DNA of 32,000 nucleotides from Candidatus Saccharimonadota bacterium. GTDB lineage: Bacteria; Patescibacteriota; Gracilibacteria; BD1-5; UBA6164. The stretch lies in NCBI GenBank assembly GCA_965227835.1, contig OZ245768.1, positions 840,001-872,000 on the forward strand, given 5' to 3'. Of the stretch, positions 3,001 through 26,090 are shown piece after piece. Under the pieces are notes generated by a model that searched no databases, was not told the origin of the DNA, and saw nothing but the letters and a program-made list of their open reading frames with translations. How positions within the stretch are numbered: position 1 is the stretch's first letter; each line of letters opens with the position of its first letter. A program made the position numbers and the translations under genes.

Positions 3001-6000
3001 CTTAGGTCTGATTCATCATATATTTTTGATACAAAATTTTTCGTTATACTTAGAGAGTTTTTTGTATTGTATGGACTATTTAAAAGGCTAGTAACAGCAA
3101 GTGCTCTATTCTCTCTATCAAAAAGCATAGAACCTGCAAGGTAGTTTTCATGGGTTATGTCTCAATATGCTCATCAAACAAGTGTCGTATAAAGTGCATT
3201 ATAATTGTTGCTAAATACAGAATCTCCAGAGTAAAAGAAAAATGTTTCAAGTCCTATAGCATTTTGACTCACTCAGTTTATTTCTACTAAATTATCTCAT
3301 TCTCATATAGTGTGAATATTATCTTCCAGAGTTTTATCTATAGAAGCTTTTAAATAAGCTGCACCTGGAAGTTCGGTTGCATTTATCCTAAATTTAGTGA
3401 TTCAGTTTTTAAGTGTTTGAGAATAGGAGTTTGAGCTAATAATTGATTTATATTCATCAAGTATTTCTAAATCTATTTTTGAAGAGTTATCACTAAATAC
3501 TGTATTGTTATAAATATCTCTAAGTTCTACCTCCACATATATTTGTATATCTGGACTTGCTTCTAATTTATTACCAGAGGATATAAGCTCAATTGACATA
3601 GGTTCTGCATGCATTATAGCAACATAATCACTAAATACAGTATCAAATCACTCAACTCTAAATCTAACTTCTAAATCTTTTTTGGATTTAACTTTTGTGG
3701 AAAAATAAGCTATGGCTTTACCTTCTATTATTTCTACATAATCTTTTTCAAATTCTATATAGTTAATATCTGAAGAAATATAAACTCTTGAATTTAAGTC
3801 GTTTAGAAGGTTTCAATTTTTATCTTTTATATTAAGTTCTACACTATATCTATTGTTTCATACTTCTAGTTCATCTCAGTAGCTAGTCCCTATTTCTACC
3901 TCATCTATAACTCTTATATCTTTGCTTGTACTAGAAATTAGAACAGAGTCCTTTATTAAATCTATTTTTAATTTAGATATTCAAGCTTGATCACTTGATT
4001 TAAGCCTAAAAGCCTTGAATCATTCAAAGGTGGTTAGTGTAAGTGATTTGGAATCATTTGCTTCAAAAACTACACTATCTCATAAAATACTTAGTTCAAA
4101 ATCATATACATCTCCTGAAACTATATTATCAAATTTGTCATAAATACTTAAGATATTATTAGAAACAGCCGAGTTTGATTCCAAAACATTTGTTCATAAA
4201 TCTAGCTGTATTTTAGATGGAGCTAAAGGAAGTATAGTAAAATTATTTTGGGTTTTGTATCAATAATAATCGACTACTTCTATTTCATATTCTCATGATT
4301 TTGTTATAGAGTATAATTCTCTTATGGAGTTTAGCTGATTTTTGTTAAAGCTTTCTTCTTGTATTATTTCAGAGTTTGAGTCTCTTAAGGTAACTTTTAT
4401 AGGGAAATTTAGATCTTTTTCGACTCATCAGTCTCAAAGACTAGATAGGGAAAATACTAAAGAATTGCTATTAACACTGTTTGTATCTAGGTTGGAATTT
4501 TTATCATCTATTAAGTATATATTCGTATCATCATTTGCATATGTATAGTTTAAAAATTCTTCCTCTAAATCTTGATTTACAAGTGTGGGGCTTAGAAAAA
4601 GCCTATCATTTCTAACTTTTACTATTAAATCATCAGAATTTAAACTAACGGTTTCTTCTCATTTGTGGTCAAGTAGACTTAGCCTAGATTTGAAATATAT
4701 ATCTGCTTGTTTTCACTTGGTGGAAAAAGAATAGTTTGCTCCTCAATAGTTTGATTTTATAGATATAGGTTTAAAAGAAATATATTGATTTATTATATCA
4801 GAGCTATAAAAGAAACTATCTTTTGAAGAATCATAAACAGTTTCATCTGTTTCTACATCAACTATTTTAAGAAGATCAAAATATATATAGCTAGAATTAT
4901 CAATAAAAACTCTTTTAAGGTCTTTATCTAAAACTTTTGCTTCTATATTTCATTGTTTATTTGGTAAATATCTCAAACTATCAGAAGATGTCTCAAGTAA
5001 AGAGTCATCTTTTAGAGTCGATTCAAGACAATCATTAACTCAGTTTTTATCATCATCTTCCCTACATTGATCCCCTCCTCACATATATTTAGAATAAAGA
5101 TCCTCAACTGAATAAATTGTTTCTCAAATCTCTTGTGACATTTCCTCTAATATATGACTACTTCAACAATTTCATTCTCATATGCTTATTTGTGGAGGCA
5201 ACATATTTTCAAGCCAACATTGTACTGCTGGAAACCATTCCCAAATTGGTACTCAATCTGGGGGAGCACATTTGAAATTTGTATCAACTTTATTGCTGGA
5301 GTTTATAGCTCAAATTCAAAGTTTTGCATTATTCAGTGATTCATTTGTAGCAATTATATCAGAATATGGATTATCTTTTTCACCATTTGGATCCATTTTG
5401 ATATACATATTTTCAGCATCTCAATGTCAGCCAATGTATGCTATTTCATATTGTTTTTTATTTTTAGATAGTATGTAGTCAAAATCTGTATCTTTGGAAA
5501 CTTGATCGCTCAAATAGTTTTCAAATACAAATTTATATTTTGCAGATATATTATTCAAACTATTCCAGTAAATGGAAAAAACTAAGAAATCATAGTAAGA
5601 TACTTCTTTTGTTTCTCATCATATTTCTAAATTTTTTACTGGTTTGCTTTTTAAAAAATTAACTAAATCAAAATCTTCTTCCATATAATCTCATACTTTT
5701 AGAAGTTCATAAATCTCTAGGTTTGATCAGCTAAGAGATTTTGGATTTTCTTCTCTTATTATATCATTTATATAGTCACTTTTTTCTCTTAAATATTCGT
5801 CTAGTTTTTGGGATACTTCTTGGCTATTTTTTCATGATAGCCTGAAAAGATATGGATAGTTTATCTTTTTATAATTTCAAAGAGCACTTATAAAATCAAT
5901 ATATCTATCTTTGTCTATTGGTAGATTTGGTGTTATAAATGAAGATAACTGAGCATTTACTTCGTCAATTGTTGGGGATTTGTGTTCTAAATATGAGTTT

Positions 6001-8000
6001 ATAGATTTAAAATAGTATTTGTTTGTTTTCCAATTATTCCAACTGGTATTAGTTGAGGTAGACGATGATGTAGTATTATTTCACTTACATTCATAAACAG
6101 TCACTTTAACAGTTTCTCATGATTCTCAATAATCAACTTCTACTTCTTTTCAAGGATCACTATATGATAAATATTTAGCTTGATTATTATCTAGATATAA
6201 ATGCCTTATTTCACATTTTCAAATACCTGAATCATTATATATATCCTCAAATACTAAATCAGAATTATATCTACCACTGGTATTATCTGTTTCACAAGAC
6301 CATCTCTGACCTTTCAATTCATAATCTGCTCAATCATATTTTCTTTGTAATAAAAGATTATTATCCAAACAATTATATGGGGAAGGGTTCAGAGAATTAT
6401 TTTCTATTTTTTTAGATCATATTATATCAAAGACAGGTTCTATTGCTCATTTTAAATTATAAGGTTTTAGCTCCATAACTCCGGTTTCACTAATTTTTTC
6501 ATTATCTAGATTCAAAGGTGTATTTCATCACCATAATCATTTTAGAGATTTACCACTTTGGATTAATCGCTGACAATTGTTGTTAAGTCTATTTATATCT
6601 CAATCTATTAAATTGATATTTAATCCTCTGTTTGCTTCTACAAGTTGTCAGGAGTTTGCAGTATTTCCTCTGTATATACTACATTCATAAGATGAGTTTA
6701 TGTTAGATGCTTTTTTACCGTGAAGATAGTTTTCAAAGTATCTATTATATCATGTTTCATTGTCTTTTTTATGAATATTTGTAGGAACAGCTATTTTTCT
6801 TGATAAAGAAGTTTTTACTAGATTGTCTATTTCTTCTTCTAAATCATTGTTTGCTGATTTTATAACTTTTTGACTTACTATATCTAAAACAGATATAAAA
6901 TAAGGTATTAAATCAACATTTACTCAACTTGTTCACTCGTTGTATCTTCAAGCATTGTGAAGATTTGTTCTAAAATCAGATATAGATCATTTATTGAAAA
7001 TTTCTATAAAAGTGTTTGTAGTACCATCTACAATTTCTTTGGTCATTATATCACTAGTATTTGTGGTATCTGGGGAACTTGAACTAGCAAAAGCATCTTT
7101 TAGCTCATCTGAATCAATAGCTCAAACTATATTTTCCAGTTGAGAATTTTGTGAATCAAGTACTTCATCTTTTATCTTGTCAGCCAGTTCTTTTGAATAT
7201 CTATTGTAGCTTATATCTTCTATATTTTTCATATATGCATCATAACCTTTATATGATGAATAATCTATAGATTTTTGTTCTCTGATTCAGTCAAAATAAA
7301 AAACAGAAGGTGTATAATCAGAAGGAACCTCTTCTTCTCTGTTACCATTTAATACATTTATAGAACTAGAAAATTGATTTTCTCATTCATAGAAATCATG
7401 ATTTTTATCAAGGAAATCTTTTATTTTGGATATATCTTCGTTTGTATCTCAAGTATTTGGAGATATAAAAGAATGCCATATTTCTGGCTTTGGATTTGAA
7501 ATATTTCAATCATTTTTCTGAAATATATTAGTGTCATGATCGTATATAAATCCCTTATCATCAAAATCTACATATGGGAATACAGATTTGATTGTTTCTC
7601 AATTTTTTCAAACTATTGGTAGTGGTATATTTCATATAAAAATACTTCAAATAAGTCTAGACTCAAAATCCACTTCTTGGAGGGATTTATATCACTGGTT
7701 ATAAAGGCTTTCGTTTAGAGATGCTATTTGAAAAGAGTTTGTTTCTTGTTTTATGGGTAATATTACAGCAATAGTTTTTTCAAGTGTGTTTTGTATATCT
7801 TTTGCATATCTCTCTATTTCATCATCAAGTTCTTCATAAATTTCTTCACTAACTATTATTGAAACTAGATTTGAAAAATCTTTGTTTGTAGCATAGGCTT
7901 GATTGAAAAAAGAAAAAATAGACAAACCCGTGATTTGTCCAAAAAAGAAGGCAAAAAGAAGGATATATGAAATTATTTTTTGTAGTGTGGAGTAGTTCAT
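1..8000 (-). CDS. Giant secreted/cell-surface protein, partial: the C-terminus lies beyond the left window edge. At least 2,666 codons under table 25.
   Basis: ATG at 8000-7998. The N-terminus MNYSTLQKIISYILLFAFFFGQITGLSIFSFFNQAYA/TNK is a classic signal peptide. I checked every codon of this minus frame (plus-strand triplets starting at positions divisible by 3) from 8000 down to 1 and found no TAA or TAG, only frequent TGA. Track ORFs 7692-8000 and 3402-3614 are fragments of this frame. Hand-translated stretch: ...NQGYKSLQEVDFESRLIGSIFIGNIPLPIVGKNGETIKSVFPYVDFDDKGFIYDHD... Confidence 0.85.
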
Positions 8001-8198
8001 ATATTTTGTGATTTATTTGCTTTTCTCAAAATAAAAAAAGCTTTCAAATATAATATTTGAAAAGTCTTTTTTCACAAATCTTTTGTGATGTTTTATTTCT
8101 GCAAAATTAAAGTGTATAAAAAAATAATCTTTTTTGAAGTTTTAGAAAAAATAGAAACTTTAAAAATTACATTTGACTTTAGATTTTAAAAAATTTTT

Positions 8199-8225
8199 TT
8201 GCAAAATATTTGAAATAATTATAAT
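8199..8225 (+). promoter_or_regulatory. Candidate sigma70-like promoter for creA: TTGCAA, 15-nt spacer, TATAAT.
   Basis: ttgcaa at 8199-8204 and tataat at 8220-8225, about 85 nt upstream of the creA ATG. The spacer is short and AT-rich DNA produces such hexamers easily. Confidence 0.3.
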
Positions 8226-8298
8226 AGTTTTACTATCAAGCAATAGTGCTTAATAGTTCTTTTATATATAAAGGAAAATACACAAACCAAAACCAAAT

Positions 8299-8303
8299 GG
8301 GAG
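8299..8303 (+). promoter_or_regulatory. Shine-Dalgarno (GGGAG) of creA.
   Basis: gggag lies 6 nt upstream of the ATG at 8310. The UGA-containing native genes in this window show no comparable purine-rich box. Confidence 0.6.
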
Positions 8304-8309
8304 AAAAAT

Positions 8310-8768
8310 ATGCGATATTTAGCATTAATGTCTGTTCTTTTATCTTTTTCATCTTTATGTATGGCATATGAGGTGGGAGAAGTAGATACCTCTTTCAAGA
8401 TTTTAGGCCCCAACCACAAAATTGTAATAGAGGGATTCCAAGATCCACGAATTTCAGGTGTAACATGTCATATAAGCAGGGCTAAAAGAGGGGGTATTAC
8501 TGGAGGTATTGGTATCGCTACTGATACTTCAGATGCATCAATTGCTTGTAGACAAACTGGTCCAATTAATGAAGACAAAGTTGCAAGATTAGAAGACGGA
8601 GAAGAAGTTTTTAAAAAAAGCACTTCTATTTTGTTTAAAACTATGCAAGTGGTAAGGTTTTACGATGAAGAAGCAAATACAATTGTTTATCTTGTTTATT
8701 CAGATAAATTGATTGATGGCTCTCCTAAAAACTCTATATCTACCGTTCCTATAATGAACTGGGATTAG
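8310..8768 (+). CDS. creA: CreA-family periplasmic protein (152 aa, signal peptide).
   Basis: Intact in the standard code. The sequence MRYLALMSVLLSFSSLCMA/YEVGEVDTSFKILGPNHKIVIEGFQDP...VTCHISRAKRGGITGGIGIATDTSDASIACRQTGPI...VFKKSTSILFKTMQVVRFYD...YLVYSDKLIDGSPKNSISTVPIMNW follows the E. coli CreA pattern as I recall it. About 14 Gly codons are all GGN, with no TGA. The gene is visibly more GC-rich than its flanks. Confidence 0.9.
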   Translation: MRYLALMSVLLSFSSLCMAYEVGEVDTSFKILGPNHKIVIEGFQDPRISGVTCHISRAKRGGITGGIGIATDTSDASIACRQTGPINEDKVARLEDGEEVFKKSTSILFKTMQVVRFYDEEANTIVYLVYSDKLIDGSPKNSISTVPIMNWD

Positions 8769-8787
8769 GTATATAAATACTAAAAAA

Positions 8788-8811
8788 GTACCCCTCAAAT
8801 TTGAGGGGTAC
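8788..8811 (+). terminator. Rho-independent terminator after creA.
   Basis: Perfect 24-nt palindrome gtacccctcaaa/tttgaggggtac, followed by taaaatttt. Confidence 0.7.
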
Positions 8812-8841
8812 TAAAATTTTTAAATTATATAAATAGTAAAA

Positions 8842-10026
8842 ATGAATTTAACTAAAAACATACTTGATTCTACTTCAGAAGAACAGATAAATAAATGAAA
8901 GCTTGATTTAAAAGGAAACTCCGATTTGGTAGAAAAATTATCACAAAATGAATTAAAACAAGTAATATGACAAAGCTGAGCAAAAAAAGTATTGGTAAAT
9001 ATACTTGAAGAAGTTATTTCTTGAGTAAATATAAATAGAGAAAATTATCAAAAACCAATAGCAAGTAGCATATTTATATGACCAAGTTGAGTTTGAAAGA
9101 CTTTGCTTGCTAAAATGATACAAAAAATTTTCAACAAACATTTTGAAAATGATTTAGAATTTATAAAAATAAATTGTGCCGATTTTGCATGAGAAAATTT
9201 GTATCAATTGTCTAGAATCACTGGTGCTAGTGCATGATATATATGATCTGACAGAAAACCCATTTTTCATCCAGATAATGTTGAGTGAAAATGAAGAGTT
9301 ATACTTTTTGATGAGATAGAAAAATGATGACCTCTTTTTTGGAATATATTGTTATCAATACTTGATGATTGAACTTTAGATATAGATTATACAAGCAGGG
9401 ATAAAGAAAATAATAAAAAAATTATATCTGGATGAAAAGAAATAGATTCAAGTGAAGTCTCATCTTTAAAAACATATTTTTCCGATTGTTTTATAATTAT
9501 GACTTCCAATATATGAAACAGGGAGTTAGAAAATGAAATATCTTGAGGAAGTATTTGATTTCAAACAAGAGAAATAAATATAGAAGAAGTGGATACAGAG
9601 AAAATAATACTAAATGAGTTTGCTAAAAGATTCAAAATAGAAATGCAGTGAAGGTTTGATTATATAGTTCCTTTTTCTCACTTAAATAAAGAAAATGCCA
9701 AAGAAATAATAGACCAATTAATAAACAGACTTTTATGAAATACTTTATCAAAAGGAAATGGATTTGTGATAGAATTTTCAAAAAAAGCTAAAGAAAAAAT
9801 ATTAAGTGATGTTATATCTTCAAAGGATTTTAGAAAATTTTGAGGTAGATATATTGAATGATATTTTAAAAAAGAAATTATACCAAATGTAGCTAAAGCT
9901 ATAAATTTAGGAAAATTTAGAGGTTCTAATAATTGTTTGATAATAACAGAAGAAAACGGTAAGTTTGTTTTTTCTAAAGTTCCTATATCGACTAACAAAG
10001 AAGTTGAAGAAATTTTGGATAATTAG
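8842..10026 (+). CDS. Stand-alone AAA+ ATPase resembling the D2 module of ClpA/ClpB (394 aa under table 25).
   Basis: I translated the whole ORF by hand from ATG 8842 to TAG 10024-10026. It contains 23 in-frame TGA codons. Motifs: VIGQSGAKKVL, Walker A IFIGPSGVGKTLLAK, TGASAGYIGSD, Walker B/sensor [37 protein letters not shown], and the D2-small-like FGGRYIEGYF. These motifs only appear if TGA encodes Gly. Confidence 0.9.
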
Positions 10027-10041
10027 TTTAATTTCAAAAAA

Positions 10042-11664
10042 CTAAGAATTTTCAATTGAAAGCAAATATAATCTAATTCATTCAAAGTTTTTTTCATTAA
10101 AAAGTCTCCTAATTTCTTTTTTTTCTTTTCTGTAAAGAAAATCAAAAATTGAAAATGAATATTTTCAATTTTTAAATAAATGGTTTACAAATAGGTTAAG
10201 GCTAGATTCTTTTTTTCTATTTAGTTTATACAAAGAAATTCATTTTTCATAATAAAATTCTGCAAAGCTAGGATTAAGTTCTAATGAACTATTATACATT
10301 TCTATTGATTCTTCATAGTTTCATCTATCAAAAGAGCAAAGTCAATTCCAAAAGTAAATATCTGCGCATGTAGGATTAAGGTTTACAGCTATATTAAACA
10401 TATATTTTACCAAATCATAGTTTTCATCATTATGTAAAGAAACTGATTTGTTACTAATAATTTGTGATAATAGTATCTTTTCTGGATTTCAGGATACAGC
10501 TATATTGTCTCAAATATTACTAAATTCTTTATAAAATCAGAAATTATGGTCATTTTTTACACTATTTCACCATTTTAATTCATACAATTTTGGATTAGAA
10601 TTATTATCAAAATAATAACTTTTATTTCATAAAAAAATTTCTAAAGCCGAGTGTCTAGGAGAGCATAATCAATTGTGCCTTATTCAAAGTTCATATAAGA
10701 AACTATGCCACACTAAAGAAAATCATACACAATACATTTCTTTAAATTCTAATACCTTACTGGGTTGATATCAATAGTTTTCTAATGTGATTTGATATGG
10801 GTATGTAGAATATATTATATGTAATATCTTATCAACAGCTTTCTTTTCTAGCTCTGTTATTAATTTTTTATCGTTATTTTTCCTTGCCTCTTCTAACTCT
10901 TTTTTTAATTCATTTATTCATATTTTTTCCCTAAGTTTTTGTTCTCTAATATCTAAATCTTTTAGGGCAACTCTAGATGTAGCAAAATTTTCACCTACTC
11001 TTCTAAGTCTTGATTTTATTTCTTTAAATTCTTTTCTAGTAAGTGTCATGAGACCATATCTAAGCATATCTCTAGATTTTCTAAAGAAACTTAAGTCAAA
11101 CTCTCAAGTATAAAGAATTTCTAGTAAACTATCTAAATTATCTACATCTTTTAATTTTATCTTTTTGCTTGTTCAGTTTTTTTGATTGCTATAATCTTTT
11201 ATTTCTCTAATAGATTTTCTAAGAGAAAAGCTATCTGCTTCTAGTTCTTTTTGATATTTTAAAAAAGAATCTTTGGGTAGTCAATTCTCTGAAATTATGA
11301 TGTTTATTTTTTCTTGATTTTCTTTTTTAAGTTTTGATATTTGTTTTGGTGATAGATCTCTTATTCATAATTTTGCATATCAAATAAATCTTTTTATATC
11401 CAGTCATAAACTAAATTTCTCATTTAAAAGAAAAATTATATAGAATAAGTCTTTGTTATTTAAATCCTTTGGTAAGTAAAGATTATATTTTTTTCAAAAC
11501 TTGTCTTCTCAACTTTCTTTTAAAAATGCTCAATTTAAAGAATCAAACTCTTTCCTTTCAACAAATATAGGTTTTATATAAACCAGAGTTTTTAATATTT
11601 CTTTAAAAGCTTCTCTTGAATAATCATTTTCAAACAACGGATTATTTAAATTTTCTAAACTCAT
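10042..11664 (-). CDS. Transglutaminase-like/TPR protein (SirB1/YchA-like C-terminal half) with an uncharacterised N-terminal extension of about 300 aa (540 aa).
   Basis: ATG at 11664, TAG at 10042-10044. A frame scan found no in-frame TAA or TAG. The Cys-His-Asp-type motif is EMYCVGFSLVWHSFLYELGIRHNGLCSPRHSALEIFLGNKSYYFD. It is followed by TPR-like repeats: NPTCADIYFWNGLCSFDRGNYEESIEMYNSSLELNPSFAEFYYEKGISLYKLNRKKES. Confidence 0.75.
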
Positions 11665-11739
11665 ATAACTTTTTTTCTTTATTTTAACATATTTATTTTT
11701 TTATGTAAAAAATATGGTTTTCATTCTACAGTAAAAAAT

Positions 11740-11750
11740 GGGTCTGTTGC
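11740..11750. repeat. Left terminal inverted repeat of the IS5-like element.
   Basis: gggtctgttgc. See the IRR at 12933-12943. Confidence 0.75.
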
Positions 11751-11824
11751 AAATTAGATTTTAGCTATTAAAAAGAGAAAAAAGAGATATAATTAGATAG
11801 TAATTATATTCTAAGAAAATACCT

Positions 11825-12790
11825 ATGTGAGAATCAAATCAAATAAGTTTTGTTATCCTAAACGAGCTAATTCCAGAAAATCATCAATATCGTAAATTTA
11901 AGAAATTGTGGAACTTTGATTGAGTAAATAAAATACTAAAAAATATAGATCTATGAAAAACTCATGTATGATATTGAGTAAAAAAATTATTTCTATGTTT
12001 ACTAATCCAGTTTATGGAAGATCTATCAGATAGAGAGTTAGAGAAATATCTTGCAGAAAATTTAGCTGGTAAATGGTTTTGCTGATTTAAATTAACAGAT
12101 AAAACTCCAGATTATAGTATATTCTCAAGAGCAAGAAAAAAGATATGAACAAATGAACTATCAAAGATATTTGAAGATTTAAAAAATCAATTATCAAATA
12201 AGGGGTATATGAGTGAAGTGTTTACATTTGTAGATGCTTCTCATTTAGTTACTAAAGCTAATTTATGGGAAGAAAGAGATAAATGAATAAAAGAATGATA
12301 TGAAAAAATGAATAATGAAACTCTTCCAAAAGTTGCTAATGATAAGGAAGCTAAAATTTGATCTAAGTGAAAAAATAAATTTTGGTATGGTTATAAAAAA
12401 CACGCTAGTGTTGATATGCAATCTTGAATGATAAACAAGATAGCTATAACTCAAGCTAATGTAACAGATGCAAAGTGAATGAAACATGTATTACCAAATT
12501 CATGAGCAGTATATGCTGATAAGTGATATTGTATTTGACCAGCTATATTATCATCAAAAAAGAAGTGATTACATTTATGTGCAATAAAGAAGAATAATAT
12601 GAAAGAGAAGGATAAGGATAAAGATAGATTTTATTCTAAACTTAGATCTCCTTATGAGAGAGTATTTTCAAAAATGAATCATAGAGTGAGATATAAATCT
12701 GTAGTAAAAAACCAGTTTACTGCATTTATGGAAGCTATATCTTTTAATCTCAAAAGATTGGTTGTATTAGAGGAAATCCCAATAGCTTAG
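11825..12790 (+). CDS. IS5-family DDE transposase (321 aa under table 25).
   Basis: Hand translation: MGESNQISFVILNELIPENHQYRKFKKLW...KKLFLCLLIQFMEDLSDRELEKYLAENLAGKWFCGF (InsH/DUF772-type N-terminus)...FVDASHLVTKAN...FWYGYKKHASVDMQSGMINKIAITQANVTDAKG...AVYADKGY...SPYERVFSKMNHRVRYKSVVKNQFTAFMEAISFNLKRL. It has about 19 in-frame TGA codons. Track ORF 12599-12790 is its tail. Confidence 0.9.
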
Positions 12791-12932
12791 ATTAGTTTCC
12801 TTAGGTGGATTTTGTCTAAAATCCTAAATTATATATAAAAATGGCTATAATTTAACAAAAAATAGATGAATTTTATAAATCTTTCATCTATTTAGTACTT
12901 TTCTTAATTAAAACTCTTTTTAAAATCAAAAC

Positions 12933-12943
12933 GCAACAGACCC
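12933..12943. repeat. Right terminal inverted repeat of the IS5-like element.
   Basis: gcaacagaccc is the reverse complement of 11740-11750. Confidence 0.75.
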
Positions 12944-12971
12944 AAAATCTAAAAACTTTTAAAATATAAAA

Positions 12972-13001
12972 AGACCCACTAACTTAAAAGTTAGTGGGTC
13001 T
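12972..13001 (-). terminator. Rho-independent terminator downstream of the SPFH gene.
   Basis: 12-bp stem agacccactaac / gttagtgggtct with loop ttaaaa. On the minus strand a T-rich run follows the stem. Confidence 0.7.
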
Positions 13002-13037
13002 TTAGTTAAAGCTATTAAGCTTTTATCTCCTTATTTT

Positions 13038-13391
13038 TTATTTTTTTTGTTTTAGATCTTGAGATTCAGGACCTTCTTCGCTTTCAGACGAAGTAACATT
13101 TGATTGAACTTCCTTATTTGAGTTAGGAGTTAATGCACTGGCAATAGCAACAGTTTGAGAAACATTAGCCGAACTCATATCTGCAGGTATGATAATAGTT
13201 TTACTACTTCTAGCAACATCTCTCCAATCAATACCAGCTAAAAGAGCTAAAATCTCTTGATCTGATACACCTTTAAACGAGTGTCGGAATTCATCCATTA
13301 CTGGAGCAAAACCTTTAGCTATAACTTCTCTTTGGTCTACATAGGCTTTAGCTTTTAGTTTTAAACTTTCAGCTTCAGCTTCACCTATCAT
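13038..13391 (-). CDS. SPFH/band-7 (HflC/stomatin-like) protein, C-terminal fragment after a frameshift.
   Basis: MIGEAEAESLKLKAKAYVDQREVIAKGFAPVMDEFRHSFKGVSDQEILALLAGIDWRDVA... The AEAE-rich coiled segment continues the upstream fragment in the -1 frame. TAA at 13038-13040. No TGA codons. Confidence 0.7.
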   Translation of the reverse strand: MIGEAEAESLKLKAKAYVDQREVIAKGFAPVMDEFRHSFKGVSDQEILALLAGIDWRDVARSSKTIIIPADMSSANVSQTVAIASALTPNSNKEVQSNVTSSESEEGPESQDLKQKK

Positions 13392-13990
13392 CAAAATTTT
13401 CTTACTTCAGCTTCAGCTTTAGCAGCTATTTCTTCTCGCTTAGCAGCAATAACCCTATTAAATGAGCTTTGCACTTCTTCACTAGGCATAGGCTCATCTA
13501 TCAAAACAGATAAAATTTCATACCCATAGTTGGAAAACTTATCATCAAGCTCTTTTTTGACTTCTTTAATAATTCCTTTTTTGCTACTGTATACTTTCTC
13601 CATAGTCATAGAAGTAACTTTAGAACGAATAGTATTTAAAATCAAAGAAGTCATCTGTTTTTGAGGATTTTCTAACTCGTAAAAAGCTTCTTTTACCCTA
13701 TCTGGTTTAACTTTATATTGAACAGACCATGGTAAATTTAAAAATGCATCATTTTTAGTTTTTACACCTACATTGCCAGATAACAATTGTATCTGCATAT
13801 TGACCCTACCTACAATACTAGCAATGGGCCATGGAAATTTCAAGCTTAAACCTGGCTCCTTGGTACAGTAAAATTTACCAAAAACCTCAATTACAGCCAC
13901 AGATTTTTGACGTACTATAAAAATAGAACTAAAAAGGATAATTAAACCAACTATCCCACCTATAACTGAGTAAAGTATATTTAAAATCAT
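13385..13990 (-). CDS. SPFH/band-7 protein, N-terminal fragment (TM anchor plus SPFH domain).
   Basis: MILNILYSVIGGIVGLIILFSSIFIVRQKSVAVIEVFGKF...WSVQYKV...EILSVLIDEPMPSEEVQSSFNRVIAAKREEIAAKAEAEVRKF. Under table 25 it then reads tga tga tag, so the frame ends at 13385. There is no TGA anywhere inside the 199 aa. Confidence 0.75.
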
Positions 13991-13997
13991 AATTTAT

Positions 13998-14002
13998 CTC
14001 CT
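13998..14002 (-). promoter_or_regulatory. Shine-Dalgarno (AGGAG) of the SPFH gene.
   Basis: The minus strand reads cctAGGAGataaattATG, a 7-nt spacing. Confidence 0.6.
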
Positions 14003-14067
14003 AGGTAATGATAAAAAAATCGTATGATTATAAAGAACAGCCAATTAATGAAAAATTAAGTAAATAT

Positions 14068-14086
14068 CTACCAGTAGAACTGGTAG
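14068..14086. other. Subterminal hairpin of the IS200-like element, at the end downstream of tnpA.
   Basis: ctaccagt aga actggtag. Confidence 0.6.
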
Positions 14087-14124
14087 CTTTAAATGGAAGC
14101 CCCTAGAAGGGGCTAAAATAGTTT

Positions 14125-14562
14125 TTACCAGTTTAAATCTAACTGATTTCCATCAATGGTTTTATCCTTATGTTGCTGATGTTGAACATAATTTTTTATC
14201 ATATCCAAGTCAAGTCAAACTGTACTTACATAGTATCATCTACTCCAGAAATTCTTCGAGTACAGTCATTTCTTCTTACTATGTTTGTTATGAAGTATTA
14301 TTGCACTCTTTCATTTCAATCTTCACAGAATTTCTGCAACAGAGTATTTTGGAGATATCCTCAAAACGAGATGAACATGATCTATCGTTATATTTCATTT
14401 TAATATCTCAAAATCATATCTCTTTGCAAGTTCATGAAATGTGTCTCGTATATCTTTTCTAACTGATTGAAAAAGTATTTTTTTTCGGTACTTTGGTACC
14501 ACCACTATGTGGTAAGTGCAGTCCCAATTCACATGGGACTGCTTTGCGTATTTGTGGGACAT
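14125..14562 (-). CDS. tnpA: IS200/IS605-family Y1 (HUH) transposase TnpA (145 aa under table 25).
   Basis: MSHKYAKQSHVNWDCTYHIVVVPKYRKKILFQSVRKDIRDTFHELAKRYDFEILKGNITIDHVHLVLRISPKYSVAEILGRLKGKSAIILHNKH...NFWSRGYYVSTVGLDLDMIKNYVQHQ. The HUH motif (HVHLV) and the catalytic YYVSTVG motif are present. Seven in-frame TGA codons encode Gly. The frame scan was clean. Confidence 0.9.
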
Positions 14563-14644
14563 ATCTTTAAAAAGTTATTCCCCTCCTAGGTGCTTCCTAG
14601 AAGATTATACACAACTACCGGAACGGTAAAACCTCCACTACTCG

Positions 14645-14661
14645 CACCAGCAGAGCTGGTG
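14645..14661. other. Subterminal hairpin of the IS200-like element, at the end upstream of tnpA.
   Basis: caccagc aga gctggtg. Confidence 0.6.
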
Positions 14662-15087
14662 GTTTAGTGTTGGATTAATTAAAAACATAAAACTTTGTAA
14701 AAAATTCCTTCATAAAATCAGCAACCTAGTTTTATAAAAAATTCCCAAAGTAAGAAATGAAGTGCAATTAAAAGAGAAGAAAATATAGTATTCCCCGTAG
14801 GGTAATAACATTATTTTCTATTTGTCAAATAATTTTTTCAAACCTACCCACTTTTTTGTGTTTTATAGCTTATCCTTTACCTTTATATAAATGAAAACAG
14901 AGGTTCTATATTAATTGACTTTTGTAAATACCAAATTAGCTTAAATAAGTCTTTTATAAAACAAAAAAGATAAAGAACTAAAAATAGTCCAATATCTTTT
15001 TATTTAAACTAAAAGCTAAGTAAACTTTCTATAAAAAACATAATTCGCTATCACTTTGAGATTATCAAAACTAACCTCCAAACTTTT

Positions 15088-18000
15088 CTAAAACCCACAA
15101 AGAAATATTTCAAGAATCCAAAACCTTAATATTAGTACTTATTTTTTGATTATTCAAATTTATAAACACTTCCATTTTTCATGGTTTTTGTTCAAGCAAA
15201 AAATTCTTTAAATCAACCAAATCTTGTTTTTTAGCAAAACTAGGAATATCTATAACATACTCATCTCTTAAAATAATTTTTTCAAGATTTTCAGATTTAT
15301 TGTCGTTAATTTTTTCATCTAAACTAGATTCAAAATCTTCAAGTTTTTCTTCATCTTCCAAAAAATCATCTCCCAAAGAATCAGAAATCTTTTTTTGATT
15401 TTCATCAAAAAGACCATTTTCTATAGCTTGATCCCTAACCTGTGATATACTGGCTATTTTTACTCAATCAATTTTAGGTCTAATAGACTTTCTAGAATAT
15501 TCTAAATTTATATCCAAAAATCCTTCAACTATAATAATTTTGTAGAAATCTATCTTATCTCAGTATTTCTCAACATCTTTTGAAAACAAAGTAAGTTCAA
15601 AAGAATAATCATATCATTCACATTTTAGAAAAATCATAGGTTTTCAAGTCTTTGTGAAAATCTTTCTAAAATCAATTACAACTCAAATTGCTTCACATTC
15701 TTCTCTTTTGATCTCTTCATTTTCCTTCTTATTTTCTAAAGAATATTCAGGTAGTTTTGATAAATCATCAAAACTCATTTTTAGTTTATTTGTATTCATA
15801 CTTCTTCTAGAACAATATCTAAACATACCATCTAAAGGATGTCCAGAAACCCAAAATCATATCACTTCTCTTTCTCAATGCAATTTTTGTTCAAAACTCA
15901 TAGATTCTGTTTCTTCTAACTCTAGCCTTTCTTGAAATTCTTCAAAATCATCAAAAAGTCACATTTGGTTTGTCTCTTTTTTATCCTCATCTTTTCTAGA
16001 AAAATTTATCATATTAGGGACAGAAGCAAGCATAGATGCTCTTTCTCAAAATTTATCAATAGCTCATGATCTTATGAGTGCTTCCAAGGTCTTTTTATTT
16101 ATAACTTCTTTGGGGCAAGATTCTATAAAATGTTCTAAATTTCTAAAAGTTCAACCTATTTTGTCTCTAGTTTCTATTATTTTGTTTATAGGAGTATCTC
16201 ATATTCATTTTATAGCTTTGAATCAAAAAACTATAGTCTTATCATCTATATAGGTAAAATGTTTTAAAGATTCGTTTACATTTGGTGCTAAAACAGAAAT
16301 TCATTTTAAACTACATTCAAAAACCTCCAATTGAACTCTGTCTATATTTTCTTCGTCAGAAACCATAAGAGAGGTAAGAAATTCTGTGGGATAATATGAC
16401 TTTAAGTAGGCTGTTTGATATGAAATAAGAGCATAACAAGCTCAGTGTGATTTGTTGAAAGAATAATTGGATGCTGGTTGTATCATTTCTTCGTATATGT
16501 ATTTGGTTAATTCTGGTTTATATCACCTAAATTTTTCTCATTTTTCTATAAATTCTTTTTTAAGTGCTTCTATAACCTCTACTTTCTTTTTTCAAACTCA
16601 CCTCCTGAGTAAATCAGCTTCACCTAAAGAAAATCAAGCCATATATTGCACCATAAAAATCAATTGTTCTTGATATACAGCTATACCATAAGTTACATCT
16701 AAAATCTTTTTTAGATCCTCTTCTAGCATAAGTTTTTGCTCTTTTATTACCTCATCACTATATCAAGCTTTTTTCATTATTTTTATAAGTTCTTCTGGCA
16801 TATATGAAACTTTCTCTCAATGTTTTCTTTTTATATATGTTGGTATATAAGCAAGTGGTCCAGGTCTATAAAGAGAAACCATAGCTATAAGATCATCAAA
16901 AGAATTTGGTTTTAGATCACGAAGATATTTTTTCATTCAATCAGATTCAAACTGAAATACTCCAAGTGTATCACCTAAGGCAAAAGTTTCTAAAGCTTTG
17001 CTGTCTCAGGTATCTAGGTTTAAAACATCTATTTTTTTTCATTTGTTTTTTTCAATTATTTCAACTGTTCTTTTTATAACAGTAAGATTTCTAAGTCAAA
17101 GGAAATCCATTTTTAGAAGCCCTAAATCTTCTAAAGGATATGCAGAATATTGTGTTATGATTGAGTTATCATCTTTTGGTGGATATTGAAGGGCTGTATA
17201 TTTGGTCATCTTTTCAGGAGCTATAATAAGGGCACATGCATGTACTCATATTTGCCTAACATTTCACTCTATTTTTATGGCATTATCTATAATTTCTTTG
17301 TATTTTTTACTTTTATATGCCTCGGCAAATTCAAAAGAATCTTTCAAAGCTTGCTCTAGTTTGATTCAAACTTTTTCAGGAATGGTTTTTACTAGTTCGT
17401 TCATTTCAGAGAAACTTATTCCATAAACTCTTCATACATCTTTTATGGCTGCTCTTGCTGCAAAAGTACCGAAAGTACAAACTTTAACTACCTTATCTTT
17501 TCAATATTTTTCAGTACAATATTCAATCACTCTATGTAGTTCATTATCAGCAAAGTCGGTATCTATATCAGGCATAGAAATTCTTGCAGGGTTTAAAAAT
17601 CTTTCAAAAAGAAGATCATATTTCAAGGGATCTAAATCAGTGATTCAAGAAAGATATGCCATCAAGCTTCATGCTGCTGATCATCTACCAGGTCAAACGG
17701 GTATGTTTTCATATTTGGCCCAGTTTATATAGTCTGCTACTATCAAAAAATATGCATCAAATCACATTTCATGTACTACTAAAAGTTCATATTCCAGCCT
17801 ATCAATTATATTTTTTTTGTTTTCATCAAGAGAATTTATAAAATTCTTTTTTTCATCAGTGTAATAAGTAATTGATAGTTCTTTCAACTCATCTGGAAGA
17901 GTATCTGTGAGTTTTTTTTGTAAACCTTTTTTATCAAGTTTTTTTACAAGTTCAAAAATGATTTCCTCGCTCAAACAAAAATTAAATCTATAATTTAATC

Positions 18001-19012
18001 ATTTAAAAGAAAGGTATCTTAAGTACCATTCAGAAGTATCAAGTTTTTTGATTGAGTTTTGATTTTTTTCTAGATTTATAGCTTTTTCATAAATAATTTG
18101 GTCTCTGTTTGGAAGCTCAAATTTTGGTATCAAAATATTTCATGTTTCTATTTTTATATCTATTTTATCTGCTATTTTATTTGTATTTTCCAATGCTTCT
18201 GGAATAAATCAAAAAAGCATTTGCATATCTTCATATGTAGTAAATGAATAGTCTCAATTTATAAGTGTTGGTCTATCAGGATTTTCTAGTTCATGTCAGC
18301 TACCAAGAGCCATTATAACATCTTGGGATTTCATATCTTCCTTGTCCAGGTAATAGCAATTTTGAGCTGCAACTATAGGGATTTTATATTTTTCAGAAAT
18401 TCTTATGATTTCTTTTGTTACGAGTTTTTGTTTAGGTATATCTTCATGATCAAGTATTTCTAAATAAAAATCATCTTCTCAAAAAATATCCTGATAAAGT
18501 TTTATTTTATCAAGTATTTCTTCATCTGTTTTTCAAGATAATATATAAAACGGTATTTCTCAAGAAATAGGTCAGGATAGGGCTACAATATCTAAATTTT
18601 TTTTTGGATTGTCTGAAGGAGAACAAATACCTTGGTTTTCTAGCAAGCTGGAAGATTCTTTTATATCTTCTAATTTGATTCTAGATGTGCTTCAAGAGTT
18701 GCTTAAATTGGCTTTTGTAACTAGAGATAAGATATTTCTATATCCGTTAATATTTTTTGCTAAAAGTACTAGTTTGTGGTTAATTTTTTCATCCAAGCTT
18801 GATTCTACAAGTATTTCTGTTCAAAGTATTGGTTTTATTCACTGTTCAATACAAGATTTATAAAATTCGTGGCAACCATATACATTTGAAGTATCTGTAA
18901 GAGCAACTGCTTTCATACCTAGTTCTTTAGCTTTTTTGGCATATTCTGAAGGTTTAGGTAATCATTCTAAAATAGAGTAGTGGCTATGATTATGTAGGTG
19001 TACAAAAGACAT
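15088..19012 (-). CDS. dnaE: DNA polymerase III alpha subunit. The end is uncertain: the TGA near 15178 must be read as Gly under table 25, which moves the stop to the TAG at 15088-15090.
   Basis: ATG at 19012. PHP domain: [46 protein letters not shown]. Catalytic motif: [18 protein letters not shown] (about 17550-17600). The frame scan from 15361 to 19012 found no TAA or TAG. Track ORFs 17762-17974 and 15179-15376 are fragments in the same frame. Confidence 0.85.
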
Positions 19013-19109
19013 AAAAGTAAATTGGGTTTTTAATTTTATTTAAAAAATTATAATAATTTAGAATTTTTATTCAAAAGTAAAAAATATTTGTAAATAGAGG
19101 TTTAAAAAA

Positions 19110-19153
19110 GCCCCTTTATGTGTTTTCAAGTAATTGAAAACACATAAAGGGGC
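19110..19153 (-). terminator. Strong (bidirectional-looking) terminator between the membrane-protein gene and dnaE.
   Basis: 18-bp stem gcccctttatgtgttttc / gaaaacacataaaggggc with loop aagtaatt. T-runs lie on both sides. Confidence 0.75.
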
Positions 19154-19175
19154 TAAATTTTTTACTCCTCTTTAT

Positions 19176-19976
19176 TTAGTCTAAGCTATAGGTTAAACAC
19201 TGTTTTTTGAGAACAGTATATAATCCCCACAAAACCATGAAAGGTAGGCAAATAAAAGCAGAGACTATTAAAAGTATTAAAATTAAATATATGAATCCCA
19301 ATATATAAGACATAAATGGATTATCTATGAATGAAATACCTATATATAGCAATAAAGGTAATAGTGCATATATTGGTCTCAAACGAAATGTAAAATTAAG
19401 TATTTTTAAGTCTTTGGTATATTTATCTTTTTCAACAGGAAATTGAAAGTCATCTGAATTCAAAAAAATCAAAAAACTTCTATATCCAAGATCATATATC
19501 TTGTGTCCCAAAAGAAGCTTATAAGAAACTAATAATAAGTAAAAAATTAAAAAAACTAAAATACCTATTAAAGTACCTATAAATAAAAAAACAAAACCAA
19601 AAAACATAAATATTGGTAAAAAGAATATAATGTTGTGTGTATCACAAAAATTCATATCCACCTTTGAAGATTCTTTATACTTATTAAGATTTTTATGGTA
19701 GTAAAATAAATTTCTAAAAGAAAGATATATAACCTTCAAAAAAATACCATCTTTTGATATTTTCTTTTGCTTAATGAGATAAAATAGACTACACCAAAGT
19801 AAGGCAAAAACTAAAAGCAAAGTTAATGCAATTTTTGATACAAGTTCAATATTTAGTTCTGTATAGTTGTGATAAATATATAAAGATCCAAATATTAAAC
19901 AAGCAAGTAATACTATATTACAAAAAAATCTAATTCCACCAGAAATAAGAGGAATAGAGTTTGCTTCTTTTTTCAT
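19176..19976 (-). CDS. Hypothetical multipass membrane protein (266 aa). No family recognised.
   Basis: Intact in the standard code with no TGA. Several long hydrophobic segments: FFCNIVLLACLIFGSLYIY, IALTLLLVFALLWCSLFYL, IFFLPIFMFFGFVFLFIGTLIGILVFLIFYLLLV, ILGFIYLILILLIVSAFICLPFMVLWGLY. Confidence 0.8.
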   Translation of the reverse strand: MKKEANSIPLISGGIRFFCNIVLLACLIFGSLYIYHNYTELNIELVSKIALTLLLVFALLWCSLFYLIKQKKISKDGIFLKVIYLSFRNLFYYHKNLNKYKESSKVDMNFCDTHNIIFFLPIFMFFGFVFLFIGTLIGILVFLIFYLLLVSYKLLLGHKIYDLGYRSFLIFLNSDDFQFPVEKDKYTKDLKILNFTFRLRPIYALLPLLLYIGISFIDNPFMSYILGFIYLILILLIVSAFICLPFMVLWGLYTVLKKQCLTYSLD

Positions 19977-19982
19977 AATAAA

Positions 19983-19988
19983 CTCCTT
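19983..19988 (-). promoter_or_regulatory. Shine-Dalgarno (AAGGAG) of the membrane-protein gene.
   Basis: The minus strand reads aaAAGGAGtttattATG, a 6-nt spacing. Confidence 0.6.
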
Positions 19989-20189
19989 TTTATGTGAATG
20001 AACGAAAGCAAAATTATAGTATGTATAGATTTAATATTGTCAAAAAAATTGTATTTTTACATATATTTTCATTTTACCAAGTTATAATTTATAAAAATTA
20101 ACTAATTTTTCTAAAATTTGACTTAAAACTCTTTTTTTATAAGATACCTTTTACAGTTTTTTTGACACAAGTTAGAAGTTTAAAAAATT

Positions 20190-20502: not shown

Positions 20503-20724
20503 ATGAAAACTTGAATACATCCTAAATCAAATTTAGTTAAAATAACCTGCTCTTGTGGCAGTGTTTTTGAATTAAGTTCTACAATTTCTTGAGATACAAG
20601 AGTAGAAATCTGTTCAAATTGTCATCCTTTTTATACAGGGGAACAAAAAATTCTTAAAACTGGTGCCGTTGATAAGTTTTATGCAAGAAGAAAAAAGACT
20701 GAAGAGTTGAATAAGAAAAAGTAA
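20503..20724 (+). CDS. rpmE: 50S ribosomal protein L31 (73 aa under table 25).
   Basis: [73 protein letters not shown]. Two TGA codons fall at conserved Gly positions, including MK-x-G-IHP. Confidence 0.9.
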
Positions 20725-20746
20725 ATTTTTGTTTTGAGACCTAAAT

Positions 20747-20815: not shown

Positions 20816-22519
20816 TTATAAATCTTGTCTTGGTATTCCTCAGAGTTCTAAAACCTTTTTTAAACATGTATTATTTTGTCATCAATTATTCAATAATATT
20901 GTAGCTCATCTTAAAGTTCAAAATATTGTTCAATATCAAAAATATAATTTGAAAAAGTTACATACTCAAATAGTTTTTAGATCTACTTCTACTTTGTTTC
21001 AATCTTTATCTGTAATACTTGATAAAAGTATCTTTATATGTTCAGGATTTTTATAATCTACCCTTTTTATACCTAAATCTAGTCTTTTTATTCAGTAATA
21101 TCATAAGATTTTTATTAGAGTTTTGTTATTTATTCATCAATTTCCTTCTAATATTTTAGTTCATCTTACCTTTCAAAATTCTGTTGAATATCAAAAATAC
21201 AATCCAATAAATACCGCAACTCAAATGGTTTTTAAATCTATTTCTATTTTTTCTCAATTACTCTCTGTAATATTTGATAAAAGTATCTTTATATGTTCAG
21301 GGTCTTCAATATCGAGTTCTTCTTTAGCTAAATCTGGTCTTGATATCCAAGAGGACTCTAAAATATTTTTTAAGGCTTTACTAGATTTTAGTCAATTATT
21401 TTTTAGCAAAGTTTGTCATGATAACATTCAAAATTCTGTTCAATATCAAAAATATAGTCTTTCAAAAGATTTAACTCAAATAGCTTTTAAATTTACATCT
21501 ATCTTGTTTCAATACTTATCTGTAATTTTTGATAAGAGTTTTTTTATATGTTTAGGGTTTTTACAATCTAATTCCATACTAGGCAAATCTGGCCTTGATA
21601 TTCATCAAACTTCTAAAAGCTTTTTTAGATATATCCTATTTCTTCATCATGTTTTTATTAATATACTTTGTCATGATAACATTCAAAATACTGTTCAATA
21701 TCAAAAATATAGTTTAGGAAAAGCTACAGCTCAAATAGTTTCTAAATCTACTTCTAGATTATTTCAATACTTATCTGTAATTCTTGATAAGAGTATCTCT
21801 ATATGATCTGGATTCTCATAGTCCAGTAGGGGGTTTCAACTAAGTAAAAAATTATTATCAAATAAAATCTCTAAATTACTTTCATATTTATCAAAATATT
21901 TTATAGATATAGGGAAATCTCCATTTACCATATCTCACTTATTAATGCTAGATAAAAAGTCTGGCTCTATAATTCATTTGTAAATATATGTATCTTCTCA
22001 TATTTGATTATTTATTAATATAGTTCTTGAAATTCCTTTTGTCTTTATTGTAATTATCCTATATGGAAGATTTATACTATTTGATTCAAGTGTTTCTATA
22101 TATGTTTTTATTTCCACTCATTCTAATCTTAATCAATATTTCTTGTATAAAAGTTTTAAAAATATCTCATATTTTGGAACTTCTCTAAAATGTTCAGGAT
22201 CTTCTCAAAATTGATTAGTTTTTGGAGAGCAGAAAATAGAAAAATTTAATTTCTCTTCACTACCTTTTTCTAACTCAATTATCTTTTTTATTGCTAAAGA
22301 AAAAAATCTATCATAACATATCTTTGTGTCCAAATATATACCTCTTAAAAGTAAGTTACTACATTTGGGTTCTACTTCTTTGTATATTTCTAAAAATCTA
22401 TCTATAAATTCTTTCTTTGATATTCAATATTTAGAGGTTTCTTTAAATAGTAAATTCATTCTTTCATAATTTCAATCATTTTTAACTGATTCACTAATTG
22501 TAGTATCAATGTTGCTCAT
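20816..22519 (-). CDS. Array paralog R1: 232-aa head plus 4 modules of 85 aa (567 aa).
   Basis: ATG at 22519, TAA at 20816-20818. The frame scan found no in-frame TAA or TAG. Head: MSNIDTTISESVKNDGNYERMNLLFKETSKYGISKKEFIDRFLEIYKEVE... Last module: DYKNPEHIKILLSSITDKDGNKVEVDLKTIGVCNFFKLYFGYGTIFGTLRGATILLNNGGQNNTCLKKVLELGGIPRQDL*. Many TGA codons encode Gly. Confidence 0.85.
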
Positions 22520-22542
22520 CTTAAAAATATTTTGTTGTTAGT

Positions 22543-24492: not shown

Positions 24493-24588
24493 TTAAAAAA
24501 GTCTTAATTAATATAAAATTATTGTCTTAATATAAATAAATTTTTAAAGCTAAGGGGAGGTTTTTAAAAATATTTATTTCGTTTTATG

Positions 24589-26040: not shown

Positions 26041-26090
26041 TTAATAGTTTGAATTTAAAAATAAAGTCCAAAGCAATATCTGTTTTTCAT

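Follow-up and report, generated by a model that had tools for sequence, protein, structure and literature searches.

The window analysed here is a stretch of 32,000 nucleotides (nt) from a Candidatus Saccharimonadota bacterium (contig OZ245768.1, positions 840,001–872,000, forward strand; Gracilibacteria in GTDB), and its genes in question are three that lack in-frame TGA: creA (8310..8768, plus strand), a gene for an SPFH/Band-7 protein (13038..13990, minus strand), and an orphan membrane-protein gene (19176..19976, minus strand). Under translation table 11 the window (G+C content about 26%) yielded only short open reading frames (ORFs), whereas reading TGA as a sense codon gave long continuous genes. 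These included an ORF of more than 2666 amino acids (aa), the gene for DnaE (1313 aa), a tandem array of five paralogs, and genes for an AAA+ ATPase, a TPR protein, and two transposases. TGA made up 4–8% of the codons in the window genes, and TGG was rare. Glycine in the native window genes was encoded by 541 TGA versus 145 GGN codons, a pooled TGA fraction of 0.79 (541/686; range 0.69–0.92). Invariant glycine positions also carried TGA, and the Walker A motif GPSGVGKT of the AAA+ protein and the motif GPGRGSAAGS of DnaE appeared solely when TGA was read as glycine. The window is written in genetic code 25 (TGA = Gly), which is known in Gracilibacteria and Absconditabacteria (PMC10746230, PMC8080830). 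Genes for tRNA-Gly(UCA) and release factor 2 were not located within the window or the related loci.

None of the glycine codons of the three genes was TGA (creA 0/12, SPFH 0/15, membrane gene 0/12), compared with 23 of 33 in the AAA+ gene. The probability of finding no TGA was 8e-9 for creA, 8e-11 for the SPFH gene, and 8e-9 for the membrane gene, and it stayed at or below 1.2e-6 for each of them even at p = 0.68. A first-pass annotation, made from the sequence alone, had already pointed to three TGA-free genes among TGA-rich neighbours. Its value of 23 TGA among about 33 glycine codons for the AAA+ gene was reproduced exactly, as were its counts of 15 for the SPFH gene and 12 for the membrane gene, and its figure of about 14 for creA was corrected to 12.

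Each of the three genes was preceded by a Shine-Dalgarno (SD) motif 6–7 nt before its ATG and followed by a strong hairpin with a T-run, both as the first-pass annotation had described. The SD motifs were GGGAG for creA (8299..8303, plus strand, 6-nt spacer), AGGAG for the SPFH gene (13998..14002, minus strand, 7-nt spacer), and AAGGAG for the membrane gene (19983..19988, minus strand, 6-nt spacer). The window's 11 other genes had no SD motif. The intrinsic terminators were located at 8787..8812 (plus strand; stem of 11–13 bp with 6 GC pairs), 12970..13003 (minus strand; stem of 15–16 bp), and 19109..19154 (minus strand; stem of 20–21 bp with 8 GC pairs), the last of which separates the membrane gene from dnaE. 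Terminator-like sites numbered 13 in the window against 3.1 expected. Promoter-like sites lay upstream of creA (TTTGCA-16-TATAAT, 10/12 match, 8198..8225, plus strand), the SPFH gene (TTTTCA-16-TATAAT, 14027..14054, minus strand), and the membrane gene (TTGACA-16-TACTAT, 20016..20043, minus strand); all three are consensus matches only, and such sites were no more numerous than in shuffled sequence.

The background set for these comparisons was about 180 kb of code-25 DNA. It comprised the window, three sister-strain contigs (L001, L116, and L117 from ENA ERZ25074195; 90–99% nt identity to the window), and eight dnaE loci of more distant code-25 relatives (about 80 kb; DnaE 59–69% identical). 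Six of the 75 genes with at least 5 glycine codons were TGA-free, namely creA, the SPFH gene, the membrane gene, and three further genes designated orfX (L001 890–1348), hyp184 (L117 11192–11746), and hyp123 (L117 1141–1512). The three additional genes were also led by an SD motif, and orfX and hyp184 had GC-rich hairpin terminators. The other 69 genes showed TGA fractions of 0.36–1.0 (median 0.69) and included DnaE, DnaK, Obg, LysS, PheS, SecY, RecJ, SSB, RNase R, a restriction-modification cluster, and ten ribosomal proteins. All 69 used TGA, and the many equally TGA-free vertical housekeeping genes that, according to the first-pass annotation, would refute an import were thus not seen. All 7 TGA-free genes bore an SD motif, and none of the 77 genes that use TGA did (Fisher p = 2e-10). 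The clear members of the class (5/5) encode exported or membrane proteins, and TGA-free genes accounted for 6 of the 39 genes sampled in this lineage.

Two observations from distant code-25 relatives concern the SD motif. A lone SD-led gene (AAGGAGAG; L090 4624–4857, 78 aa) lay directly downstream of dnaE; it was also TGA-free, which carries little weight with a single glycine codon. The locus L086 (11880–12811) contained a fragment of a 16S rRNA gene, its 5' 930 nt, with the 3' anti-SD tail cut off.

The codon usage of the class was atypical beyond glycine. With glycine left out, the synonymous-codon likelihoods of the three genes fell within the lowest 0.1–1.4% of native windows. The class favoured T-ending over A-ending codons (ACT, ATT, and GTT over ACA, ATA, and GTA). 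CGN codons accounted for 10 of the 36 arginine codons in the class (2/7 in creA, 4/11 in the SPFH gene), and native genes had about 6 in 240 (p = 2e-6). The class is a discrete outlier in TGA use, SD motifs, terminators, and CGN arginine codons, and its phyletic distribution is restricted.

The creA gene ends with TAG and encodes a 152-aa protein with an N-terminal signal peptide. The protein matched the Pfam family PF05981 (E = 5e-58, 195 bits, cutoff 25) over 131 of 131 profile positions. It scored 205.8 bits against NCBIfam PRK10756, under the equivalog cutoff of 241; by these scores it is a member of the CreA family and not a certified equivalog. The gene was described in the first pass as GC-richer than its flanks, which holds for overall G+C content (0.349 vs 0.235–0.285 in the giant ORF, AAA+, and TPR neighbours). 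The excess, however, sits at codon positions 1 and 2 (0.43 and 0.40), and the G+C content at third positions (GC3) was near-native at 0.22.

A total of 7980 CreA homologs were retrieved, and the best non-self match was 70–75% identical. Named matches came from marine Gamma- and Alphaproteobacteria, Nitrospinota, and SAR324, and enterobacterial CreA was 57–58% identical. The best 80 of 382 GTDB loci belonged to SAR324, Kiloniella, Magnetococcales, Bdellovibrionota, Nitrospirota, and similar groups, and no candidate phyla radiation (CPR) genome was among these 80.

Between the two strains, creA differed at only 2 of 459 positions (0.4%), versus 61 of 1185 in the AAA+ gene and 75 of 1623 in the TPR gene (3–5% in the neighbours). 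Its SD motif was identical and its terminator 100% conserved in L116. The sister-strain copy (L116, around 4430) carried a GAA to TAA change at codon 24, possibly an error because the contig has 4x coverage. A 17-nt repeat (8770–8786 and 8826–8842) and others were considered as insertion scars and rejected, since by our estimate they were no better than chance in DNA of 76% AT.

The SPFH gene lies in a cassette (12944..14055, minus strand) that consists of the promoter-like site, the SD motif, the frameshifted gene, and the terminator, and that forms the cargo between two insertion sequences (IS). The gene encodes an HflK/C-like protein with an N-terminal transmembrane helix and was taken in the first pass to be a single gene. 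This did not hold, because its span of 953 nt is not divisible by 3 and the N-terminal part (13990 to about 13397) and the C-terminal part (13394–13038) are in different frames. One base is missing in an A4T4 run (13393..13400, minus strand), where the upstream frame ends in TTT TGA TGA TAG. As encoded, the gene is therefore a 201-aa frame and a separate 118-aa ORF. The repaired product (317 aa) matched PF01145 (E = 1.6e-31, 110 bits vs a cutoff of 23.6), and the repaired junction aligned with all homologs.

A programmed -1 frameshift was rejected, since the site has no canonical X XXY YYZ heptamer and the homologs are single ORFs. We treated the frameshift as a mutation or, less likely, an assembly error. 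Native ORFs of 8 kb, 3.9 kb, and 3.7 kb in the window contained zero frameshifts, so that the rate of indel errors in the assembly is low.

The best SPFH matches, 47–52% identical, were the Planctomycete Uabimicrobium and metagenomic contigs, including one (L002) whose gene content looks gammaproteobacterial-like; Bacteroidota proteins were 37–42% identical. The protein scored 84 against the HflK profile TIGR01933 (cutoff 159) and 35 against the HflC profile TIGR01932 (cutoff 134). It stands as a single gene between the two IS, with no NfeD or HflC partner gene.

On one side of the cassette lies an IS5/IS1182-type element (11739..12943, plus strand) with terminal inverted repeats GGGTCTGTTGC and GCAACAGACCC. 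It was recognised by Pfam (DUF772 and DDE_Tnp_1) and NCBIfam, and its transposase coding sequence (11825–12790) contained 17 TGA codons (17/20 Gly). On the other side lies an IS200/IS605-family element (14056..14684, minus strand) that has subterminal hairpins and abuts TTAATTAA. Its tnpA coding sequence (14125–14562) matched Pfam Y1_Tnp (E = 9e-35) and NCBIfam IS200 (135 bits vs a cutoff of 55) and encoded 6 of 7 glycines by TGA. The extent of both elements was taken from their copies in L117. Because both use TGA, the flanking IS are resident in the code-25 world.

The two IS and the cassette belong to a strain-specific segment (11714..15077) made up of 25 bp, the IS5-type element, the SPFH cassette, the IS200 element, and 393 bp. 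Contig L116 of the sister strain, 95–99% identical, runs collinear with window positions 4017 to 11716 and picks up again at 15078, at the 3' end of dnaE. Between these points the sister strain has a TPR paralog instead (32 TGA and 8 GGN codons), so that the whole 3.36-kb segment is swapped for a native gene. The cassette had no match anywhere in L001, L116, or L117, nor was a target-site duplication of the block detected. The SPFH cassette is strain-specific cargo between two insertion sequences, and of the three genes it shows import most directly.

Some further features of this segment were observed. The source genome holds at least 5 distinct copies of the IS5-type element, and in L117 (8715–10507) an IS200 copy is nested within the right end of an IS5 copy. 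At both sites, the IS200 element adjoins TTAATTAA, its probable target. The 393 bp that separate IS200 from the end of dnaE (14685–15077) contained no ORF and had no counterpart in the sister segment. The SD-like sequence AGGAGATAAA occurred twice, upstream of the SPFH start (13993–14002) and directly after the SPFH stop (13022–13031). A comparable AGAGGAG lay after the stop of the membrane gene and before its terminator (19160–19172). These motifs after the two stops may be relics of a downstream gene of a donor operon.

The orphan membrane protein has 266 aa and about 6 predicted transmembrane helices, and its glycines are encoded by 6 GGA and 6 GGT codons. The gene is not GC-rich (overall 0.237, GC3 0.18). 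The sister-strain ortholog was the only homolog found, both among 5.8e9 proteins in a word-indexed search and among 1.84e9 representatives scanned exhaustively with HMMER, and no Pfam, NCBIfam, or PHROG family was assigned. The AlphaFold model reached a pLDDT of 51, too low for a fold search. The gene was absent upstream of dnaE in 8 of 8 more distant code-25 relatives. A tRNA cluster adjoins it on its 5' side.

The ortholog in L001 (10001–10777) was also TGA-free (0/10 Gly). Opposite to creA, the membrane gene was a divergence hotspot, with 16% nt and 31% aa divergence (69% aa identity), a ratio of nonsynonymous to synonymous divergence (dN/dS) of 0.7, and two in-frame indels. The differences were spread evenly over the codon positions. 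Its SD motif, terminator, and neighbours were 93–100% conserved; the SD motif was identical and the terminator 97.7% conserved in L001, and the adjacent DnaE was 92–99.5% identical. L001 was rejected as proof that the gene has long been kept free of TGA, because a sister strain (90–93% nt identity, synonymous divergence dS 0.1–0.2) gives no statistical power. In the same contig (10939–11631), dnaE carried a frameshift near codon 95, which is possibly an assembly error.

The two strains also gave an estimate of how long the class has been in residence. Since they occupy the same sites in both strains, creA and the membrane gene are older than the strain split. Swaps between GGA and TGA in native genes numbered 3 among about 19 GGA-bearing codon pairs, and of the 21 GGA codons in the class none was converted to TGA. 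Under neutrality, this sets the average residence time of the class at roughly no more than 1–3 strain-split units, which speaks for a recent arrival. On the same estimate, the near-native GC3 of the class was not acquired after arrival, so that either the source was already AT-rich or TGA is selected against. The SPFH frameshift, the possible nonsense codon in creA, and the near-neutral membrane gene fit accessory genes under weak selection.

In our reading, the three genes are self-contained cassettes that arrived by horizontal transfer from a source in which TGA does not stand for glycine, and we put the probability of this reading at about three in four. Cassettes consisting of a promoter-like site, an SD motif, an ORF, and an intrinsic terminator would have entered a shallow lineage of a code-25, SD-less, AT-rich CPR-type bacterium. 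They would work in the host because an ORF that has no TGA in frame and is closed by TAA or TAG reads alike in codes 11 and 25. The genes would still be TGA-free because there has been too little time for synonymous GGA to TGA drift, which has converted about 73–79% of native glycine codons. We infer the direction of transfer and the vehicle from these features; the source pool was probably AT-rich, and the cassettes presumably are, or formerly were, expressed.

This reading agrees with the first-pass annotation, which had proposed recent imports from standard-code bacteria. None of the three proteins groups with the CPR, as the relatives of CreA and SPFH are non-CPR and the membrane protein has a homolog in the sister strain only. 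The placement within the same CPR lineage that the annotation had named as refuting was therefore not observed. The description of self-contained foreign cassettes stands; "not yet ameliorated" applies only if the source was AT-rich, since GC3 is near-native. The donor clades that phylogenies had been expected to reveal were not identified for any of the three genes.

Several findings weigh against a recent import from outside the code. The GC3 of the class (0.14–0.23; 0.15–0.23 in the three window genes) is close to the 0.13–0.17 of most native genes (IS200 tnpA 0.32), while creA GC3 in possible donor genomes is 0.25–0.90 with a median of 0.60, lowest in Oligoflexia and Bacteriovoracaceae. 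In a neighbor-joining tree, CreA stood alone on a long branch with no resolved sister, at about 72% identity to everything. About 72% is the usual inter-phylum identity in the CreA family, and the donor of creA therefore cannot be named. Three members of the class are orphans, and no donor is nameable for any gene. Phage or IMG/VR relatives of the membrane gene, orfX, hyp184, and the SPFH gene were not found either.

The condition and setting of the genes add to these points. creA lies between the giant gene and the AAA+ gene in both strains, and the membrane gene lies directly upstream of dnaE in both, so that neither is brand new. No IS, integrase, or att site was found around creA or the membrane gene, nor any significant flanking repeat or target duplication. 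A further caveat is that the SPFH gene is disrupted by its frameshift. The residence clock rests on 3 events. The sister-strain contigs have 3–5x coverage, so that single-base defects in them may be errors, and the DNA surveyed from this lineage amounts to about 57 kb of a 1.49-Mb genome.

An unlikely alternative, but the strongest of those weighed, is that the cassettes came from a pool of mobile elements kept TGA-free by selection for replication in both code-25 and standard-code hosts. It is itself a variant of horizontal gene transfer, with another source and another reason for the lack of TGA, and the AT-richness would come from long association with AT-rich hosts. Such elements exist: of the phages predicted for Gracilibacteria, 34 of 38 have no in-frame TGA and fit both codes, as do 6 of 50 for Absconditabacteria (Liu et al. 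2023, PMC10746230). A near-native GC3 combined with zero TGA would be expected from such a pool. Three members are fast-evolving orphans and small secreted or membrane proteins, typical of phage morons, and each cassette forms an autonomous unit that has its own promoter-like site and terminator.

The search results bear on this pool in both directions. CreA (E = 3.5e-9) and SPFH (E = 1.5e-24) each matched a PHROG family, though much more weakly than Pfam, and the SPFH gene is flanked by IS. These IS, however, use TGA heavily, and prophages in these phyla reportedly use code 25 (PMC10746230). No phage structural, integrase, or plasmid gene was present near any cassette in the window or the related loci. 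IMG/VR scans with CreA, SPFH, the membrane protein, orfX, and hyp184 returned nothing beyond one CreA match at 58% identity, which was the sole viral match, and a GenBank phage search found no relative of the membrane gene.

In a stronger form of the same idea, the lineage would draw on a standing pool of "code-neutral" AT-rich cassettes that cross the code boundary, for instance between the code-25 episymbiont and standard-code bacteria by way of mobile elements that fit both codes, and are kept TGA-free by selection within the pool. We consider this unlikely. If it were true, about 10–15% of the genes of such a genome would belong to an envelope repertoire that is independent of the code and open to exchange, and the count of GGA to TGA conversions would date the exit of each gene from the pool.

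Very improbable, by comparison, is that the three are native genes avoiding TGA through selection on expression, for instance as very highly expressed SD-led genes on which the UGA-reading tRNA-Gly is slow or error-prone, or as genes whose translation is needed while that tRNA is limiting. Ribosomal proteins do use less TGA than native genes overall (0.52 of Gly, 54/104, vs 0.73), which hints at mild translational selection against TGA, and the clear class members, all envelope proteins, could form a regulon. But ribosomal proteins, DnaK, and SecY still carry 25–72% TGA and have no SD motif, whereas the class jumps discretely to 0%. Ribosomal proteins and DnaK use CGN for only 0–5% of arginine codons and do not share the T-ending bias, so that CGN use is not a signature of high expression. 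On these controls, high expression was rejected as the explanation. Selected native genes would also not be expected to be missing from the sister strain (SPFH) or from eight relatives (membrane gene), to include three orphans, or to show a frameshift in one member, a sister-strain nonsense codon in another, and a dN/dS of 0.7 in a third. The ribosomal protein loci counted were L001 6284–7409 and 9258–9479, L117 7049–8002 and 13661–16031, and window 20503–20727.

An artefact, be it a contaminant, a chimeric mis-join, or chance, is barely credible: the homopolymer frameshift of the SPFH gene does resemble long-read assembly errors, but chance is excluded at P ≤ 1e-6 per gene, the independent metagenome assembly ERZ25074195 reproduces the junctions of creA with the giant gene and the AAA+ gene and those of the membrane gene with the tRNA cluster and dnaE base for base and thereby excludes a chimeric assembly for these two genes, TGA-rich genes lie within a few hundred bp on both sides of each cassette on one contig, and the long native ORFs are free of frameshifts.

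The remaining genes of the window showed some features of their own. The five tandem paralogs (20816–31567, minus strand; 483–1249 aa) fill one third of the window and occur also in L001 (7555–9171). They are built of repeats of about 85 aa (…DYKNPEHIKILLSSITDKDGNKVEVDLKTIG…FGYGTEFG…LKKILE.GGI.RPDL), belong to no Pfam family, and use TGA for 84% of their glycines. The giant surface-type ORF (1–8000, minus strand; more than 2666 aa) showed a mosaic of divergence when compared with L116 (1–4056): 1.5 kb (4517–6017) was free of mismatches beside a 500-bp stretch that held 41 mismatches and 63 indel columns, a pattern that suggests recent recombination plus a hypervariable segment. The gene rpmE (20503–20727) contains 2 TGA codons and is missing from ORF lists made with table 11.

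In a public protein collection, the genome was translated with code 4, which places tryptophan at each TGA (P0121, P0190–P0216). The Walker A motif thus appears as WPSWVWKT, and P0121 stops at the frameshift site of the SPFH gene with the ending …RKFWW. With this translation, native proteins are wrong at 4–8% of their residues, and only the TGA-free imports are correct.

The reassignment of a stop codon is often called a genetic firewall, and the cassettes show that this firewall is one-way. Genes that are free of TGA and end in TAA or TAG can enter a code-25 genome and stay readable. As native genes have no SD motif and use mostly TGA for glycine, imports stand out gene by gene, orphans included. 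The drift from GGA to TGA provides an internal residence clock, which on a genome-wide scale could gauge the rate, age, and functional bias of import; in the present sample the bias is toward envelope proteins.

For the individual proteins, the comparison with known systems is as follows. Like E. coli CreA (PF05981, PRK10756), our CreA shows a full-length match and a signal peptide; unlike it, the gene does not lie beside creBCD and the protein falls below the equivalog cutoff. To our knowledge, the function of CreA is not known even in E. coli. The SPFH protein resembles HflK/HflC-type proteins in its N-terminal transmembrane helix, Band-7 domain, and coiled AEAEA region, and differs from them in scoring far under the cutoffs, in having no partner gene, and in being frameshifted. 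Its setting resembles IS-bracketed cargo, as it lies exactly between two IS in a block that is polymorphic between strains. Unlike in a composite transposon, however, the IS belong to different families (IS5-type DDE and IS200 Y1), no target-site duplication was found, and the block replaces a native gene.

As units, the cassettes recall phage morons or genomic islets, which have one ORF, a promoter-like site, a strong terminator, and deviating codon usage, and often encode a small secreted or membrane protein. They differ in not lying within a prophage and in having promoters that match only at consensus level. With TGA-free phages (PMC10746230) they share DNA that works in a code-25 cell without in-frame TGA, with genes ending in TAA or TAG. 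Those phages, however, are whole genomes linked to their hosts by CRISPR spacers, and here we have single chromosomal cassettes without detectable phage relatives. Since TGA-free phages work in code-25 cells, recoding is no barrier to inbound genes.

The closest parallel at the genome level is Vampirococcus lugosii (Absconditabacteria), for which 126 of 1151 genes were inferred to be horizontally transferred (PMC8080830). As there, the recipient is a code-25, CPR-type bacterium, homologs of CreA and SPFH occur only outside the lineage, and the share is of the order of 10% (6/39 here vs 126/1151). The evidence there came from gene trees, whereas the TGA-free, SD-led, terminator-capped signature used here is built into the genes and covers orphans beyond the reach of trees. 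We found no prior description of this signature on chromosomal genes in the literature covered, which was incomplete. Horizontal transfer into Absconditabacteria and TGA-free phages were already known. To these, the present analysis adds a clean signature for the import of single genes into the chromosome, its recurrence in 6 of 39 genes, a bias toward the envelope (5/5 clear cases), and one presence/absence event caught between strains.

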